Below, in pieces: positions 4,320 to 32,780 of a DNA stretch of 64,000 nucleotides (its first letter is position 1; each line of letters starts with the position of its first letter). The notes beneath the pieces were generated by a model. It worked only from the letters and a program-made list of their open reading frames with translations, made no database searches and was not told where the DNA came from. Both the position numbers and the translations under genes were made by a program. This DNA comes from an uncultured Eubacteriales bacterium (lineage in GTDB: Bacteria; Bacillota; Clostridia; UBA1381; UBA9506): positions 8,280-72,279 of the forward strand of contig CASGBM010000001.1 of assembly GCA_949299615.1 (NCBI GenBank), read 5' to 3'.

Positions 4320-4502
4320 GTGGACGGTTTGGAACATTTTATATATGCGATCGACAACATGCTTGACACCAAGAGAAAGCGGCACATTATCGGCGGTATT
4401 TTAATGAGCATTTCTACGCTTCTTGGCGGGCTGGCGATCACTGTGATGACAATTAGGAATGAAAACTATGAAGACGACGAGGAGTTGGAAGAGTATGAAT
4501 AA
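4320..4502 (+). CDS. Small membrane protein with acidic tail
   Basis: GTG start after AGGAGGAAAGGAG; TM segment HIIGGILMSISTLLGGLAITVMTI. Confidence 0.45.
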   Translation: MDGLEHFIYAIDNMLDTKRKRHIIGGILMSISTLLGGLAITVMTIRNENYEDDEELEEYE

Positions 4503-5064
4503 ATTCGGAAGCGTTGCCGCGTTTGTAATCGGGGCTGCGGCTGGGTCGGCCGTGACGTGGGTGTATGCAAAAAATAAATATGAAGCGCTCATTCAGGAAG
4601 AAATCGATTCGGTGAAAGAGCATTTTCAAAAAATGGAGCAGGAAAGAAAAGAAGAGGACAACCGGGAGGAAGAAGCGAACGGATATGTGAAAAAAGACGC
4701 CGGCGTGGTCGACTATATGAAAAAAATAGAGGAGAAAAAATATGGAGACGCGCTCGGCGGAAAGGAGGCGGAAACCGTGAACAAGCCTTATGTGATTTCT
4801 CCGGACGAATTCGGGGAAAAAGACGAGTATGAACAGATCAGCCTGACATATTATTCGGACGGGGTTTTGGCTGATGAGGACGACGAAATCGTGGAAGATG
4901 CAGACAGCGTGATCGGAGAAGATTCGCTGGAACGGTTCGGGGAGTATGAAGAGGATTCCGTATTCGTAAGGAACGACCGGCTAAAATGCGACTATGAAAT
5001 TTTAAAAGACCAGCGGAATTATCCCGGGCCTTTTTACAAACATACGGAACGGGTGGATGATTAA
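4495..5064 (+). CDS. Phage protein with YtxH-like N-terminal helix and acidic C-terminal half
   Basis: ATG 4495 overlaps the upstream stop (ATGAATAA). MNKFGSVAAFVIGAAAGSAVTWVY resembles YtxH-type N-termini. Confidence 0.5.
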   Translation: MNKFGSVAAFVIGAAAGSAVTWVYAKNKYEALIQEEIDSVKEHFQKMEQERKEEDNREEEANGYVKKDAGVVDYMKKIEEKKYGDALGGKEAETVNKPYVISPDEFGEKDEYEQISLTYYSDGVLADEDDEIVEDADSVIGEDSLERFGEYEEDSVFVRNDRLKCDYEILKDQRNYPGPFYKHTERVDD

Positions 5065-26649: not shown

Positions 26650-27921
26650 ATGAAAATGGGTTTTATAAACAGGCTTCAGCATGGCTGGAATGCTTTTTTA
26701 AACAGAGATCCGACGGATTATTTCAAAGACATTGGCATGGGATATACCCATCGTCCGGATAGGCCGAGACTCACTAGGGGGAATGAAAAGTCGATCATTA
26801 ATTCCGTATATAACCGCATCGCTTTAGACGTTTCGTCCATTAGTATCCAACATGTAAGATTGGATGATAATGGACGATTTCTTTATGCGATGGATTCCGG
26901 ATTAAACAGATGCCTTACTGTCGAAGCAAATATCGATCAGACAGGCCGGGCGTTTATGCAGGATATCGTGATATCGATGTTCGATGAAGGATGCGTTGCT
27001 GTTGTGCCTATTGATACAACATTAAATCCGGAAATTACCGGGGCGTATGACATTGATTCGATGCGGACCGGAAGGATCCTCGAATGGTATCCAAACCATG
27101 TAAAGATACGGTTGTATGACGAAAGAGACGGAACGAAAAAAGACATTCGGCTGCCAAAGAAAATGGTGGGTATTATTGAAAATCCATTATATTCAGTGAT
27201 TAATGAACCGAATTCAACTTTGCAGCGCCTCATAAGAAAATTAAATATTCTTGATGCGATTGATGAGCAAAGCGGTTCCGGAAAGCTGGATTTGATAATT
27301 CAATTGCCGTATACCATTAAAACGGAAGCGAGACGTCAGCAGGCTGAAAAACGGCGTAAAGACATGGAGACACAATTAACAGGTTCGAAATACGGAATCG
27401 CTTACGCGGATGCAACGGAGCGTATTACACAGCTGAACCGTCCAGTCGAAAACAATCTAATGAAACAGATCGAATACCTGACGAGTATGCTGTACAGCCA
27501 GTTAGGGATTACGCAGAGTATATTAGATGGAACGGCGGACGAAAAGACAATGCTGAACTATTATAACCGTACGATTGAGCCGATTATTTCTGCCGTCGCT
27601 GATGAAATGAAACGGAAATTTCTAACAAAGACGGCGCTGGCGCAGCTTCAGTCGATTACGTTTTTTAGAGATCCGTTTAAGCTGGTTCCCGTTTCCGAGC
27701 TTTCTGAAATTGCCGATAAGTTTACAAGAAACGAAATCATGACTTCAAATGAGATAAGGCAGATTATAGGAATGAAACCATCGGACAATCCGGAGGCAGA
27801 CGAATTAAGAAACAAAAATTTAAACAAGTCGCCCGAAGAACCTTTACAAAAAGGCAACGTGGACGGCGAAGCAAAAAATGTGAATACAGAGAAGGAGGAA
27901 ATTCAAAATGGAGAAATTTGA
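26650..27921 (+). CDS. Portal protein (putative)
   Basis: 423 aa, positioned between terL and the protease-capsid gene; acidic C-terminal tail. Confidence 0.6.
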   Translation: MKMGFINRLQHGWNAFLNRDPTDYFKDIGMGYTHRPDRPRLTRGNEKSIINSVYNRIALDVSSISIQHVRLDDNGRFLYAMDSGLNRCLTVEANIDQTGRAFMQDIVISMFDEGCVAVVPIDTTLNPEITGAYDIDSMRTGRILEWYPNHVKIRLYDERDGTKKDIRLPKKMVGIIENPLYSVINEPNSTLQRLIRKLNILDAIDEQSGSGKLDLIIQLPYTIKTEARRQQAEKRRKDMETQLTGSKYGIAYADATERITQLNRPVENNLMKQIEYLTSMLYSQLGITQSILDGTADEKTMLNYYNRTIEPIISAVADEMKRKFLTKTALAQLQSITFFRDPFKLVPVSELSEIADKFTRNEIMTSNEIRQIIGMKPSDNPEADELRNKNLNKSPEEPLQKGNVDGEAKNVNTEKEEIQNGEI

Positions 27922-29629
27922 TTTTAGTGGCTGGGCCACTAGAAACGATTTACTTTGTTCTGACGGAAGAACCATTCGAAAAGACGCGTTTAAAAACAAC
28001 GATGGACAAATTGTTCCGTTGGTTTGGGAGCATCAGCATTCCAATCCGGAGAATGTATTGGGGCATGCGCTGCTTGAAAACAGGGATGAAGGAGTTTATG
28101 CGTATTGCAGCTTTAACGACAGCGAATCCGGAATGGCTGCGAAAAAACTTGTTCAGCACGGGGATGTGAAATCCCTGTCCATATACGCCAACAAACTGAA
28201 ACAAACGGGTTCGGATGTGCTGCATGGAACGATTCGGGAAGTAAGTCTGGTTCTTGCCGGAGCGAATCCCGGAGCTTTTATTGATTCTGTAATGGCTCAT
28301 GGAGACGATGGCGAAACAGGGATTATTTTGGGCTACGATGAAAATATTATGCTGTATCATTCGGAAGCAAAAACTGCTGAAAAAGATTCCGGCGAAAAGA
28401 ACGAGGAAACCGTTGCAGATGTGTTCAACACCTTAAGCGAGAAACAGAAAACAGTAGTGTATGCGATGATTGGACAGGTTCTGGAAGAGAACGATGACCC
28501 CGGCGACGAGGAGGAAGAACCTGAAACAAATAAAAAAGAGGATTCTAAAGGAGGAAATGAAACTATGAAACACAACGTATTTGACAACTTTGACAATGAT
28601 GCCGAGAAGAATGATATTTTAAGTCACTCGGAAATGGCTGCAATTTTCAGCGACATGAAGCGGTACGGCAGTTTAAAGGACAGCGTTATGGCACATGGCA
28701 TCGAACAGATCGATTATTTGTTCCCGGACGCGAAAAATGTAACCACTACGCCTCAGTTCATCCAGAGGGACATGTCTTGGGTTCAGAAGGTTATGAACGC
28801 AACGCATAAGACGCCGTTTTCCCGTATTAAATCGATTCTTGCAGATATTACAGAAGACGATGCAAGAGCAAAAGGTTATATTAAAGGCAAACTTAAGAAA
28901 GAGGAAGTATTTTCACTTCTGAAGCGTACTACAACGCCTACGACTATTTACAAGAAACAGAAAATAGACCGCGATGATGTAGTAGACATTACCGATTTCG
29001 ATGTTGTTACATGGATTAAGGCTGAAATGAGGATGATGCTGGACGAGGAAATTGCGAGAGCTGTTTTAGTCGGAGACGGAAGGTTGTCCTCAAGCGATGA
29101 CAAGATTAACGAACAGAATATTCGCCCGGTATGGACTGACGAAGATCTTTATACGGTAAAAGCTTTGGTTGAAGTTGGAAGCAGCGCGACTGCTGACGAA
29201 ACGGCCAAAGCTTTTATTCGTTCGGCTATTAAAGCGCGTAAGAATTATAAGGGTTCCGGTTCCCCGACTTTATACACCACGGAAGATATTCTTACGGATT
29301 GCCTGTTGATCGAAGACACGACCGGAAGGGTAATTTACGATTCTGTTGAAAAATTGGCCACTGCGTTAAGGGTGAAAGAAATTGTAACCGTACCGGTAAT
29401 GGAAGGACTTACAAGAACCGACACGACGAATGGTAAAGTAAATCTGATGGGTATTATCGTGAACCTCGCAGATTATAATGTCGGCGCTGACAAAGGCGGA
29501 GCGGTTAACATGTTCGATGATTTCGACATTGATTACAATGCGCAGAAGTACCTTATCGAAACCCGTTGCTCCGGCGCTTTGATTAAACCGTATTCTGCGA
29601 TCGCTCTGGAATCTAAAGTAAACCCTTAA
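27908..29629 (+). CDS. Prohead protease (HK97/S78-like) fused to major capsid protein
   Basis: N-terminal part VPLVWEHQHSNPENVLGHALLENRDEGVYAYCSF...GTIREVSLVLAGANPGAFI fits the prohead serine protease pattern. An acidic linker is followed by a ~350-aa capsid-sized C-terminal part. Confidence 0.7.
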   Translation: MEKFDFSGWATRNDLLCSDGRTIRKDAFKNNDGQIVPLVWEHQHSNPENVLGHALLENRDEGVYAYCSFNDSESGMAAKKLVQHGDVKSLSIYANKLKQTGSDVLHGTIREVSLVLAGANPGAFIDSVMAHGDDGETGIILGYDENIMLYHSEAKTAEKDSGEKNEETVADVFNTLSEKQKTVVYAMIGQVLEENDDPGDEEEEPETNKKEDSKGGNETMKHNVFDNFDNDAEKNDILSHSEMAAIFSDMKRYGSLKDSVMAHGIEQIDYLFPDAKNVTTTPQFIQRDMSWVQKVMNATHKTPFSRIKSILADITEDDARAKGYIKGKLKKEEVFSLLKRTTTPTTIYKKQKIDRDDVVDITDFDVVTWIKAEMRMMLDEEIARAVLVGDGRLSSSDDKINEQNIRPVWTDEDLYTVKALVEVGSSATADETAKAFIRSAIKARKNYKGSGSPTLYTTEDILTDCLLIEDTTGRVIYDSVEKLATALRVKEIVTVPVMEGLTRTDTTNGKVNLMGIIVNLADYNVGADKGGAVNMFDDFDIDYNAQKYLIETRCSGALIKPYSAIALESKVNP

Positions 29630-29664
29630 TTGCTCTCACGGTTGAGCCCGAATCCGGTGAGAGC
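29620..29664 (+). promoter_or_regulatory. -1 programmed frameshift signal (slippery heptamer + hairpin) at the capsid stop codon
   Basis: A_AAC_CCT (29620-26) directly before TAA. Hairpin GCTCTCAC (29632-39) / GTGAGAGC (29657-64) starts 5 nt downstream. Confidence 0.7.
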
Positions 29665-30021
29665 GAACTCTTCGGGAAACCAGTTGCTGATTTACAGGAA
29701 AACGTGATTGTCGGAAGCGATTCTATTTCCGGTAATTTAAAATATGTGACCGGCTATACCGGGTTCAGCAGCAAGGTTTCCGAACAAAGCGGAAATTATC
29801 TGGCTTTGAAGATTGCAACGGTTCCTTCTGAAAATGTGACAACGACTGTGGAAGTGGTCGGAGGAACGAAAGGGCCTGTGAAACTTGATTCCGATATGAA
29901 CATCGTGCTTCGTATTGCGAATAAGGACACGCAAAGCATCAAGGTGGTTTCCACAATGGGCGATAAATCCGTAGAGAAATTGTATCGGCTGACCGATCTT
30001 ACAATGGAATCTGCGGGCTGA
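29626..30021 (+). CDS. -1 frame extension of the capsid protein (131-aa decoration domain; ORF-track 29704..30021 is its 3' part)
   Basis: -1 frame open from 29617 to 30021; homologous to the tail extension from the first post-shift codon (PLIALTVEPESGE.. vs PLIALSVMPEDGE..). Confidence 0.65.
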   Translation, partial: LIALTVEPESGESELFGKPVADLQENVIVGSDSISGNLKYVTGYTGFSSKVSEQSGNYLALKIATVPSENVTTTVEVVGGTKGPVKLDSDMNIVLRIANKDTQSIKVVSTMGDKSVEKLYRLTDLTMESAG

Positions 30022-30689: not shown

Positions 30690-31361
30690 ATGAGTAAACT
30701 GATATGGGATAAAACCGGTGAAAGACTTTATGAAGCAGGTGTAAAACAAGGGGTATTATACATACGCGATAATCTTGGCGCTTATTCGACTGGCGTTGCG
30801 TGGAATGGCTTAACCGCCGTTACGGAATCCCCGTCCGGGGCAGAAGCTACTCCTCTTTATGCCGATGATATTAAATATTTAAATTTGGTTTCGGCAGAAG
30901 AATTTGGCTGCACCATCGAAGCTTATACTTATCCTGACGAATTCGCGGAGTGTGATGGGTCTGCGTCGTTGTCGGAAGGGGTTGTCATCGGCCAGCAGAA
31001 AAGAAAGACATTTGGAATGTGCTACAAAACCTCAATCGGAAACGATGTTGACGATTTAGATCACGGCTATAAGCTCCATCTGATCTACGGAGCGGTCGCT
31101 TCTCCTTCGGAAAAAGCATATGCCACGATCAATGAATCTCCGGAAGCAATTACCTTTTCATGGGAAGTAACGACAACGCCGGTCGAGGTAAGCGGTTTTA
31201 AACCGACGGCGTCACTCACGATCGATTCCACAAAAGCAGATCCCGAGAAATTGCAAGAGTTGGAAGGAATTTTATACGGAACCGATGGAGAAGAACCGGC
31301 AGGAACCGACCCGAGACTTCCGCTTCCTGACGAAATATGCGAATTATTTACAAACCCTTAA
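30690..31361 (+). CDS. Major tail (tube) protein
   Basis: IWDKTGERLYEAGVKQGVLY...VAWNGLTAVTESPSGAE..LYADD fits major tail proteins of Firmicute siphophages; position upstream of chaperones and TMP. Confidence 0.65.
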   Translation: MSKLIWDKTGERLYEAGVKQGVLYIRDNLGAYSTGVAWNGLTAVTESPSGAEATPLYADDIKYLNLVSAEEFGCTIEAYTYPDEFAECDGSASLSEGVVIGQQKRKTFGMCYKTSIGNDVDDLDHGYKLHLIYGAVASPSEKAYATINESPEAITFSWEVTTTPVEVSGFKPTASLTIDSTKADPEKLQELEGILYGTDGEEPAGTDPRLPLPDEICELFTNP

Positions 31362-31394
31362 TAGCCCTTTCCGTTATGCCTGAAGATGGAGAGG
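31352..31394 (+). promoter_or_regulatory. -1 programmed frameshift signal at the tail-tube stop codon
   Basis: Identical heptamer A_AAC_CCT (31352-58) followed by TAA. Hairpin CCTTTCC (31366-72) / GGAGAGG (31388-94) starts 7 nt downstream. Confidence 0.7.
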
Positions 31395-31744
31395 CCGTTT
31401 TATTTGGCAAAAAAGTAAACGATTTGCAAACAGGAATTACAATAAATGAGAACAACATTACCGGGACACTGAATTATGTAACCGGATATACCGAGTTTAG
31501 CAGTAATGTTTCGGAACAAAGCGGGAATTATTTAGCGTTAAAAGTAGATTTTACGCCGGCCGATGCTGTTACAACGGTAGAAGTAGTTGGCGGAACAAAA
31601 GGTGCCGTAACGCTTGATGAAGACAAAAACATTGTGCTGCTGATTAAGAATACAACACAGAGTGTAAAAGTTATCACAAGCAAGGACGGCGCGCAGAAAG
31701 AAAAAACGTATACACTTTCCGGATTGACTTTAAAAACGGAATAG
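31358..31744 (+). CDS. -1 frame extension of the tail tube protein (128-aa decoration domain)
   Basis: Paralogous to 29626..30021: ITGTLNYVTGYTEFSSNVSEQSGNYLALKV..VTTVEVVGGTKGAVTLDEDKNIVL vs ISGNLKYVTGYTGFSSKVSEQSGNYLALKI..VTTTVEVVGGTKGPVKLDSDMNIVL. Confidence 0.65.
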   Translation, partial: LIALSVMPEDGEAVLFGKKVNDLQTGITINENNITGTLNYVTGYTEFSSNVSEQSGNYLALKVDFTPADAVTTVEVVGGTKGAVTLDEDKNIVLLIKNTTQSVKVITSKDGAQKEKTYTLSGLTLKTE

Positions 31745-31761
31745 TAAAATAATCGATTTAT

Positions 31762-31797
31762 GAGGGACGTTTCACATGCGTCCCTCTTTTATTTTTT
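31762..31797 (+). terminator. Rho-independent terminator
   Basis: GAGGGACG/CGTCCCTC stem followed by TTTTATTTTTT. Confidence 0.7.
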
Positions 31798-31812: not shown

Positions 31813-32214
31813 ATGATAAAAAAAACGATTACTTATACGGATTACAACGGGAACGAAAGGACGGAAGATTTTTACTTCCATTTAAATAGAGCGGAACTTA
31901 TGGAAATGGAATTGTCACAGCGCGGCGGTTTGATTGCTATGATCGACAGGATCGTGGCCGATCAGGACGGGGAGAAAATCATCAATGTCTTTAAAGACCT
32001 GATTTTGCGGTCGTACGGCGTAAAAACGCCGGACGGAAAACGGTTTATAAAAAGTGAAGAACTGCGCCGGGAGTTTGAACAAACAGAAGCGTACAGTATT
32101 CTGTTTACAGAACTTGCGACGAACACAGAAGAGGCGATCGCGTTCTTTAATAAAATCATTCCGGAAACGGAATCTGGGGAATCGAAAGAATTGCCGGTCA
32201 ATTCGAGTAATTAA
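31813..32214 (+). CDS. Tail assembly chaperone (putative)
   Basis: 133-aa acidic protein between the tube and TMP genes. Confidence 0.45.
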   Translation: MIKKTITYTDYNGNERTEDFYFHLNRAELMEMELSQRGGLIAMIDRIVADQDGEKIINVFKDLILRSYGVKTPDGKRFIKSEELRREFEQTEAYSILFTELATNTEEAIAFFNKIIPETESGESKELPVNSSN

Positions 32215-32234: not shown

Positions 32235-32780
32235 ATGCTTGAAATTACGATACCGGAAGTCGAACAGTTCGACGAGGAAAAAGAAGAATTCGTGACAGCA
32301 AAAGCACAGACCATAAAACTTGAGCATTCCCTTGTTTCCCTTTCAAAATGGGAATCAAAGTGGTGCAAACCATTTTTGTCAAAAGAAGAAAAAAGCATGG
32401 CTGAAATGATAGATTATATTCGTTGCATGACGATTACGCAAAACGTGGATCCATCTGTTTATGACAGGATCAATATGGATTTTGACCTTCTATATCGTGT
32501 AAGGCAGTACATTGACGAACCTATGACAGCCACTACATTTTCTAATTTACAAAAATCGCAGGGACGAAGAGTCGTGACGGCAGAATTAATTTATTACTGG
32601 ATGATTGCGTTAAACATCCCTTTTGAATGTCAGAAATGGCATCTAAATCGTTTGATCACATTGATTACCGTATGCAATATTGAAAACCAACCGAAAAAAA
32701 AGATGGGAAGAAACGCACAATTGAGCAGAAACGCTAGATTAAATGCCGCCAGAAGACGGCAGCTCAATACAAAAGGATAA
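32235..32780 (+). CDS. Tail assembly chaperone-like / Gp15-like protein (putative)
   Basis: Position upstream of TMP; basic C-terminus. Confidence 0.35.
   Translation: MLEITIPEVEQFDEEKEEFVTAKAQTIKLEHSLVSLSKWESKWCKPFLSKEEKSMAEMIDYIRCMTITQNVDPSVYDRINMDFDLLYRVRQYIDEPMTATTFSNLQKSQGRRVVTAELIYYWMIALNIPFECQKWHLNRLITLITVCNIENQPKKKMGRNAQLSRNARLNAARRRQLNTKG

Follow-up and report, generated by a model that had tools for sequence, protein, structure and literature searches.

Why should the major capsid gene and the major tail tube gene of a single phage end with the same 11 nucleotides, and why should each be followed, in the −1 reading frame, by a copy of the same domain? Both genes reside in a 64-kb stretch of DNA (hereafter the window, at its full length of 64,000 nucleotides) from an uncultured Eubacteriales bacterium. 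The answer that we consider very probable is that programmed −1 frameshifting takes place at both stop codons, such that a sub-stoichiometric fraction of head and tail subunits would carry a C-terminal decoration domain. We infer the occurrence of the shift and the role of the domain from the recoding signals, from their conservation and covariation among related loci, from the existence of in-frame fusions, and from the predicted fold of the domain.

The two genes are readily recognized. The capsid open reading frame (ORF) matches phrog_3270 (E = 1e-228), with additional matches to Peptidase_S78 and Phage_capsid and a match to the prohead protease model TIGR01543 that falls under the cut-off of that model. 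The tail ORF corresponds to the 'major tail protein' family phrog_2645 (E = 5e-107), and its product is 65-72% identical to annotated phage major tail proteins in 243 phage records. At both sites, a slippery heptamer of the kind that forms part of −1 frameshift signals, A_AAC_CCT, directly precedes the TAA stop codon. The 11-mer AAACCCTTAAT that includes this heptamer occurs exactly twice in the window, beginning at 29620 and 31352, and thus only at these two stop codons, and the sharing of this string by the two sites agrees with the original prediction; approximately 0.05 occurrences would be expected, and none of 100 shuffled sequences contained two or more copies. The −1 frame is open from two codons upstream of the capsid site and from only seven codons upstream of the tail site, where it reads ...YKPLIALSVMPEDGEAVLFGK..., with AAA CCC TTA ATA GCC... 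encoding KPLIALSVMPEDGEAVLFGK..., and continues through to 31744. All coordinates that had been predicted for the end of the tail ORF, its heptamer, and the open −1 frame hold (Table 1). Each extension is therefore an open −1 ORF that spans the site, encodes a conserved protein, and lacks an initiation signal of its own, with the reservation that some relatives have an ATG overlapping the stop codon on the tail side.

The two extensions in the window (131 aa and 128 aa) align end to end with 58% identity (E = 5e-47), which bears out the earlier claim that they are paralogous over their full length. Both match phrog_31690, a family of 'unknown function' (E = 6e-39 for the capsid extension and 4e-37 for the tail extension). 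The alignment of this family covers the domain only from residue 23 on, indicating that its database members were called from internal start codons. Gene callers report the extensions as free ORFs, with 122-128 aa on the tail side, where an internal or overlapping Met is used, and with ~92 aa on the capsid side (L125 2170-2538; L004 3351-3629). The domain matches 1013 protein clusters at E ≤ 1e-3, and one cluster, named from [Clostridium] symbiosum, recurs across the assembly collection, in more than 2000 of its blocks. A Pfam search with the domain returned nothing at E ≤ 0.1 other than a sub-threshold match to the β-sandwich Glyco_hydro_30C, and thus no Big_2, I-set, or FN3 domain; there was no domain match in NCBIfam and nothing significant in a sequence search of the PDB.

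An AlphaFold2 model of the tail extension is an all-β sandwich with high confidence scores (pLDDT 96.3, pTM 0.89). Its first strand is formed by extension residues 3-8, meaning that the domain begins directly at the junction. The prediction that one module is encoded behind both head and tail genes stands in this respect, although the module is not ~100 aa long, as first proposed, and instead has 128-131 aa. Residues P8, L15, G17, K18, L23, and Q24 of the extension are invariant. When the model was compared with known structures using Foldseek, the best matches in the PDB were sandwiches of the immunoglobulin (Ig), FN3, and carbohydrate-binding module (CBM) types, all of them weak (E = 0.014-0.1, TM 0.3-0.5). 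Matches to phage Hoc and Ig-like proteins reach E ~0.03, and strong matches are solely to uncharacterised phage proteins. By analogy with other phage decoration domains, and by analogy only, the domain would probably provide weak adhesion to surfaces or glycans.

Approximately 120 related loci from Clostridia prophages and gut viromes were collected, including 79 from IMG/VR, 37 from GTDB genomes, and a few from metagenome contigs. Their hosts include Hungatella, Enterocloster, [Ruminococcus] torques, Cuneatibacter, Muriventricola, and other Clostridia. The IMG/VR loci were retrieved with an alignment as the query, and a single-sequence query gave none. A megablast search of GenBank phages with the 4.9-kb region found no match, and a tblastn search of the phage collection with the domain found a sole match, to one unannotated faecal contig. 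Wherever the upstream gene can be read, a major head protein (phrog_3270, 422, 10, 544, or 267) or a major tail protein (phrog_2645 or 820) precedes the domain, apart from a few cases in which it is fused in frame to a different protein (L107, L117, L120). The domain is attached in frame, in the −1 frame, and in one tentative case in the +1 frame, with the −1 arrangement present in the large majority of loci.

The junctions of these loci vary considerably in sequence. With the stop codon written after a space, A_AAC_CCT TAA, present twice in the window, recurs in 24 loci on the tail side and 29 on the capsid side, and also behind phrog_422 and phrog_10 capsid genes. CTC_CCT TAA is found in 20 tail-side and 9-10 capsid-side loci, A_AAC_CCC TAA in five loci, and TCT_TTT followed by TAA or TAG in several lineages. 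Rarer forms include G_GGG_GGA TGA (tail side of L007 and L008), T_TTA_AAA TAA (L001), C_CCT_TTT TAA (L102), and G_GGA_AAA TAA (L118), as well as A_AAA_AAG, A_AAA_AAA, and A_AAA_AAC located one or two codons before the stop (L109, L114-L116) and A_AAT_TTT located five codons before it (L105). Common to these junctions is a last or near-last sense codon of the Z_ZZN type, and this codon almost always forms either a Z_ZZN tetramer or part of X_XXY_YYZ. Because the CTC_CCT and TCT_TTT variants (CUC_CCU UAA and UCU_UUU UAA in the mRNA) permit re-pairing by one tRNA only, the functional core of the signal appears to be the tetramer Z_ZZN (here C_CCU), and the initial description of the signal as a full heptamer has to be revised.

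In all, 40 loci, mostly from higher-GC hosts of the Oscillospiraceae type, carry an in-frame fusion in which the tail protein runs into the domain without a stop codon (...LPLPEEVIQLLKPSVAVTASPESADATLFGK...). One such fusion ORF translates cleanly to 340 aa. These fusions show that the domain functions when covalently joined to the C-terminus of the tail-tube protein.

Further evidence for recoding comes from RNA structure. The original prediction of a hairpin downstream of the tail site was correct, except that the stem has 10 bp (12 bp in relatives) rather than 7 bp. A possible extra pair, G31364:C31396, would give this hairpin the 5-nt spacer seen in relatives. The fold of the tail site amounts to -17 kcal/mol over 71 nt (z = -2.0), and the capsid site has a hairpin of different sequence at the equivalent position. 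Among the relatives, each of the 41 unique frameshift junctions folds into a stem of 10-12 bp that is closed by a 9-nt loop and starts ~5 nt past the motif, with a mean of -17.4 kcal/mol over 48 nt and a median z of -3.6. By comparison, none of the 16 unique in-frame junctions has the hairpin, and their median z is +1.1 despite a higher GC content. A conserved and covarying structure located 5-9 nt past the motif, as would be required of a stimulatory element, is thus a property of the frameshift junctions (41/41 vs 0/16). For 16 junctions that align in register, RNAalifold yields a 12-bp hairpin (-19.3 kcal/mol) with four compensatory pairs and with only 5 of 192 cells broken. Both sides of the stem change in 7 of 12 pairs among 23 junctions, and pairing is retained in 82% of cells, compared to 45-59% with slid partners, a level that was reached by none of 500 shuffles. 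Divergent lineages have other stem sequences at the same location. A search of Rfam with the hairpin gave nothing significant.

The hairpin might also be part of an H-type pseudoknot. The loop, CCNGAR, encodes Pro-Glu and is complementary to a UUYGGN sequence that begins 6 nt past the stem and encodes the Phe-Gly of LFGK. This complementarity averages 5.4 of 6 pairs in the frameshift junctions and 4.8 of 6 in the in-frame fusions. Since it is nearly as high where no shift is needed, it may simply follow from the encoded peptide.

In the mechanism that we propose, the last sense codon CCU (C_CCU within A_AAC_CCU) would be decoded or translocated while the 10-12-bp hairpin 5 nt downstream resists unwinding, and tRNA-Pro would re-pair with CCC one base back. 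The UAA that directly follows the C-terminal proline codon may lengthen the pause. Slipped ribosomes would read UUA (Leu) in place of UAA and continue for ~130 codons, generating capsid-...VNP-LIALTVEPE... and tail-...TNP-LIALSVMPE... fusions with the β-sandwich outside the head and the tail tube; the predicted junction peptides are VNPLIALTVEPESGESELFGK (capsid) and LPLPDEICELFTNPLIALSVMPEDGEAVLFGK (tail). Those ribosomes that stay in the zero frame would terminate and yield plain subunits. The domain would then be carried by a minority of virion subunits, and slip motif and hairpin together would determine the ratio. In the geometry of −1 frameshifting, a 5-nt spacer sets the base of the hairpin at the mRNA entrance with CCU in the A site, and this arrangement would fit slippage during translocation. 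The distance from motif to hairpin is maintained in lineages where the stop codon lies 1-5 codons further downstream, which suggests that the stop is helpful rather than essential.

Experiments in E. coli with Z_ZZN tetramers followed by a pseudoknot gave the order A_AAG >> U_UUC > U_UUU > C_CCU = C_CCC > A_AAA, with −1 frameshifting of 0.26-5.6% (PMC4066793). The natural variants at the loci examined here fall within that shift-prone set, and the E. coli data suggest that the long form would be a minority product in the per-cent range. The proposal that a −1 shift aided by a hairpin adds one module to both the capsid and the tail tube gains support from the conserved motifs, the covarying hairpin, the in-frame fusions, and the missing start codons on the capsid side described below.

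Several observations weigh against this proposal and must be taken into account. Heptamers of the A_AAC_CCN class are weak in E. coli, where A_AAC_CCA was among three heptamers not above threshold (PMC4066793), and thus efficiency may be low or may depend on the tRNA-Pro of the host. The window hairpins on their own are modestly above shuffled sequences (z = -1.2 for the capsid site and -2.0 for the tail site), and the tail-site hairpin is the weakest among the 41 unique frameshift junctions. The case for the hairpin therefore relies on its conservation and covariation in relatives rather than on the folds in the window. RNAalifold found no consensus structure when given a mixed-register alignment, in which MAFFT had put L102 out of register and divergent stems were offset by 1 nt. 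Single-base variants break the slip motif in five loci (AAC_CTT in two, and CTC_CTT, CTC_TCT, and AAC_TCT in one each). Finally, an ATG overlaps the stop codon in 36 of 52 tail-side loci (TAATG or ATGA), making coupled re-initiation possible there. The five loci with broken motifs (L024, L026, L043, L051, L072) keep the hairpin, and four of the five are tail-side copies with an overlapping ATG; there are hints that coupled initiation substitutes for shifting at these loci or that assembly errors are responsible.

The overlapping start codons lead directly to an alternative explanation, wherein the extension ORFs are separate small genes that are translated alone, and a free decoration protein binds head and tail non-covalently. 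Translation would then depend either on coupled termination and re-initiation at the stop codon, using AUG or the near-cognate AUA, AUC, and AUU, or on the internal starts ATG 31337, ATG 31376, and GTG 29704. The TAATG or ATGA overlaps just mentioned are compatible with this route, as are the annotated ORFs of 122-128 aa and the fact that AUN almost always follows the junction as the next codon. However, no ATG or GTG is present within the first ~20 extension codons in 45 of 46 capsid-side loci, and 16 of 52 tail-side loci, including the window, have no ATG overlapping the stop codon. The first ATG or GTG of the capsid extension in the window is GTG 29704, 26 codons into the ORF and inside the domain, with all six invariant residues upstream of it. 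A start at this GTG or at Met7 would delete conserved residues as well as β-strand 1. Translation solely from ATG 31337 had been named as the outcome that would speak against frameshifting at the tail site; this ATG is not conserved, relatives have stop codons at its position, and no Shine-Dalgarno-like sequence precedes it. Moreover, re-initiation needs no shift-prone last codon, yet such a codon is conserved across unrelated gene families, and a stable hairpin located 2 nt past the putative start would hinder initiation. The covalent in-frame fusion of the domain in 40 loci also argues against a free protein. On balance, we regard separate genes as improbable, although re-initiation may add free domain on the tail side in the relatives that have TAATG.

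A different question is whether recoding might operate as a pure 'shifty stop', in which the P-site tRNA-Pro slips while UAA waits in an empty A site and the hairpin is secondary, as opposed to a slip that involves the A-site tRNA, alone or together with its P-site neighbor, while translocation works against the hairpin. The slip codon does adjoin the stop in most lineages, the CUC_CCU and UCU_UUU variants let one tRNA re-pair only, and a proline codon before a stop has been linked to long termination pauses and to +1 shifts at CCC_UGA in Listeria phages and CCC.UAG in lactococcal 936-group phages. Nevertheless, this version, though a serious contender, seems less likely than not. The motif lies 1-5 codons before the stop in L041, L105, L109, and L113-L116, and there the spacing between motif and hairpin is still 5-7 nt; the 5-nt spacer would fit CCU in the A site and not in the P site, and Z_ZZN tetramers have been described as A-site re-pairing motifs (PMC4066793). 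Least credible of all, with hardly any probability left to it, is the notion of a decayed gene, in which a 1-nt indel or a sequencing error disrupted a former in-frame fusion and the extension is not expressed. Relatives with in-frame fusions exist, as do a few loci with broken motifs or deletions (L033, L083), but the same frame relation is repeated at two sites in the window and at more than 100 loci in independent assemblies. The ORFs are intact, their residues are conserved, the structure model has high confidence, and motif and hairpin are conserved with compensatory changes.

Transcriptional slippage was also considered and rejected, as there is no homopolymer run of more than 3 nt at the site.

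To date the duplication, identities were compared both between copies and across genomes. The two copies in the window share 58% nucleotide identity, and third positions at conserved residues are identical in 29 of 74 cases, which is near saturation. Capsid-side and tail-side copies within a genome have a median identity of 70.5%, and copies at the same position in different genomes have medians of 87.6% and 93.8%. Same-position copies in different genomes are thus more alike than the pair within one genome, which indicates that the duplication predates the spread of this phage group and, as judged by these values, is old. Given the divergence of the copies, it is selection and not recent copying that has kept the 11-mer identical, and this identity reflects purifying selection on two overlapping frames plus the signal.

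The addition of decoration domains by frameshifting is an already known principle in phages. C-terminal Ig-like domains are joined to coat or tail proteins by a −1 shift in T3, in Lactobacillus phage A2, and in the coat genes of Listeria phages A118 and A500, whereas +1 shifts attach them in cps of PSA and in tsh of PSA, A118, and A500 at AAA CCC_UGA (PMC5009743). In some phages the Ig-like domains are in frame, and the indifference to attachment mode probably reflects domain shuffling (PMC5009743). Phage A2 has two −1 events, one in a head protein and one in a tail protein, with an Ig-like extension, according to the same review (PMC5009743). It shares with the window phage the −1 direction and the production of short and long forms through C-terminal extension of the major head protein as well as the major tail protein within a single siphophage. 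The A2 shifts have been experimentally proven, whereas the window case is predicted from sequence. The A2 head site is C_CCA_AAA. In the window, the motif is C_CCU within A_AAC_CCU, it abuts the stop codon and is identical at both sites, and the domain lies outside the Pfam Ig families. The Listeria phages PSA, A118, and A500 are similar in that the capsid (Cps) and the tail shaft (Tsh) proteins are both recoded, and in that a proline codon adjoins the stop in tsh, (AAA) CCC_UGA. They differ in that Tsh shifts by +1 and the capsid protein by +1 (PSA) or −1 (A118, A500), whereas both shifts in the window would be −1, at C_CCU_UAA, with a hairpin instead of a pseudoknot or a stop codon alone.

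Other parallels concern tails or domains in isolation. In SPP1, gp17.1* gains an FN3 domain by frameshifting, with a short:long ratio of 3:1 and an extension that is dispensable for infection (PMC8718954), and the MTP-TpeX protein of the lactococcal 936 group is made by a +1 'shifty stop' at CCC.UAG (PMC4759559). As proposed for the window, frameshifting at the 3′ end of a tail-tube gene adds a tail-decorating module of the β-sandwich or carbohydrate-binding type, although in the cited descriptions only the tail is decorated and the domains are database-recognised FN3 or CBM domains. The SPP1 shift is in the +1 direction. Ig-like domains more generally are promiscuous C-terminal β-sandwiches that occur on unrelated head and tail families, in frame or through ±1 shifts (Fraser et al. 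2006, as summarized in PMC5009743 and PMC8718954). The window domain likewise sits at the C-terminus of major head and major tail proteins from families that are not related, whether in frame or by frameshifting, but without a match to Big_2, I-set, or FN3 it does not belong to the Ig-like families by sequence. The −1 signals of insertion sequence (IS) elements also combine a minimal tetramer (C_CCY or U_UUY) with a structure located a few nucleotides 3′ of it (Sharma et al. 2014); they fuse transposase ORFs inside long overlaps, whereas the window motif is located at the end of a structural gene and adjoins its stop codon.

Four aspects of the present case are new. One is the domain family itself, which is unrecognised, systematically mis-annotated, and abundant in gut Clostridia prophages. 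Another is the −1 signal composed of tetramer, stop, and hairpin, which is used identically at head and tail genes. The third is an unusually clean set of loci for natural comparison, and the fourth is the unproven idea that signal and domain move as one unit. The A_AAC_CCT TAA junction with its hairpin is found behind four unrelated families, comprising three of head proteins (phrog_3270, phrog_422, and phrog_10) and one of tail proteins (phrog_2645), and the upstream proteins at these junctions all end in Asn-Pro. It is conceivable, though we would not favor it over its opposite, that the slip motif, the stop, the hairpin (which lies inside the sequence coding for the first β-strand), and the domain together constitute a portable recoding cassette that is complete in itself. 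Any abundant virion gene that received it at the 3′ end would immediately gain sub-stoichiometric display, and the recoding signals would travel with the domain instead of evolving afterwards at each landing site. Prophages of gut Clostridia might in this way tune the decoration of heads and tails for adhesion in the gut.

There are also practical implications. The free hypothetical ORF of 92-128 aa (PHROG 31690) that is annotated in at least 1000 protein clusters of gut Clostridia prophages is most likely the C-terminal domain of long capsid and tail-tube forms. The loci offer a natural comparison set for −1 frameshifting, in which one domain is combined with many slip motifs and a covarying hairpin, and in which hairpin-free in-frame fusions serve as controls. 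Because some of these prophages reside in gut bacteria that are in culture (Hungatella hathewayi, Enterocloster lavalensis, [Ruminococcus] torques ATCC 27756, Cuneatibacter caecimuris, and Muriventricola aceti, whose prophage L093 has an in-frame fusion), the stoichiometry and the role of decoration, including any adhesion to mucus or glycans, could be tested.

Table 1. Features of the capsid and tail-tube recoding region in the window.
Feature	Coordinates	Strand	Description
Prohead protease / major capsid fusion gene	27908..29629	+	573 aa, zero frame, C-terminus ...ESKVNP, then stop
Capsid recoding site	29620..29629	+	A_AAC_CCT 29620-29626, then TAA 29627-29629
Capsid extension ORF, −1 frame	29626..30021	+	131 aa plus stop; coding 29626..30018
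Capsid-site hairpin	29630..29666	+	Stem 29632-29641 / 29654-29664, 10 bp plus G bulge; starts 5 nt past heptamer
Possible H-type pseudoknot elements, capsid site	29648-29683	+	CCNGAR/UUYGGN complementarity
Major tail (tube) protein gene	30690..31361	+	223 aa, zero frame, C-terminus ...ELFTNP, then stop; last codons ACA AAC CCT TAA
Tail recoding site	31352..31361	+	A_AAC_CCT 31352-31358, then TAA 31359-31361
Tail extension ORF, −1 frame	31358..31744	+	128 aa plus stop (31742-31744); putative β-sandwich decoration domain; coding 31358..31741
Tail-site hairpin	31364..31396	+	Stem 31366-31375 / 31385-31394, 10 bp, 9-nt loop
Possible H-type pseudoknot elements, tail site	31379-31412	+	CCNGAR/UUYGGN complementarity
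Terminator-like hairpin and T-run	31762..31796	+	9-bp stem, 6 GC pairs, then TTTTATTTTT; from promoter/terminator scan
Tail assembly chaperone	31813..32214		PF23803 Phage_TAC_17, profile positions 1-123/178 only; next gene after tail extension
Gene after chaperone	32235..32780		phrog_4338

The strong terminator-like element (arms GAGGGACG...CGTCCCTC, with the T-run next) separates the tail extension ORF from the chaperone gene. Its placement 3′ of the extension ORF rather than 3′ of the tail-gene stop codon counts in favor of frameshifting, and it may lower the expression of the downstream tail genes.

Some distant loci show further arrangements of the domain or of its beginning. In L112 (1152-1200; a metagenome-assembled genome (MAG) of an uncultured Clostridia bacterium), a distant copy (31% identity) is encoded in the +1 frame after a phrog_10 capsid gene whose last codons are CCC TAG. 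Such a layout is that of a classic +1 'shifty stop', and the domain family may thus be attached by −1 and +1 recoding alike. Four loci from Mediterraneibacter or Lachnoclostridium MAGs (L121-L124, ~4490-4560) have only the N-terminal half of the domain in common with the others. Their phrog_544 or phrog_10 capsid genes end GGG_GAA TGA, which is not a canonical heptamer; a very stable hairpin of 11-13 bp (down to -23 kcal/mol) is present, and an ATG overlaps the stop codon.

Tail assembly chaperone genes, situated between the major tail and tape-measure genes, are the usual site of frameshifting of the G/GT type. This explanation was rejected for the signals described here, since the neighboring chaperone gene has no open −1 frame and the shifted genes encode capsid and tail-tube proteins. 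Neither the chaperone gene nor the gene after it has an overlapping −1 frame or a slippery heptamer near its 3′ end, and a usual G/GT-type frameshift is not evident in this phage from these sequences.

The core of the tail-tube protein (30690-31358) shares its 65-72% identity with major tail proteins of actinobacteriophages that infect Streptomyces, Arthrobacter, Gordonia, and Microbacterium, and it also matches proteins of Lactococcus and Faecalibacterium phages, a cross-phylum conservation that is unusually high. In Microbacterium phage Count (L003, 4001-4885), a different extension of ~80 aa follows in frame at the same junction (after LPLPDE..F), and the capsid fusion protein of this phage has 745 aa compared to 573 aa in the window. 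The tape-measure gene of the window phage (33157-40785) encodes 2542 aa, a length that points to a very long tail with several hundred tail-tube subunits open to decoration.

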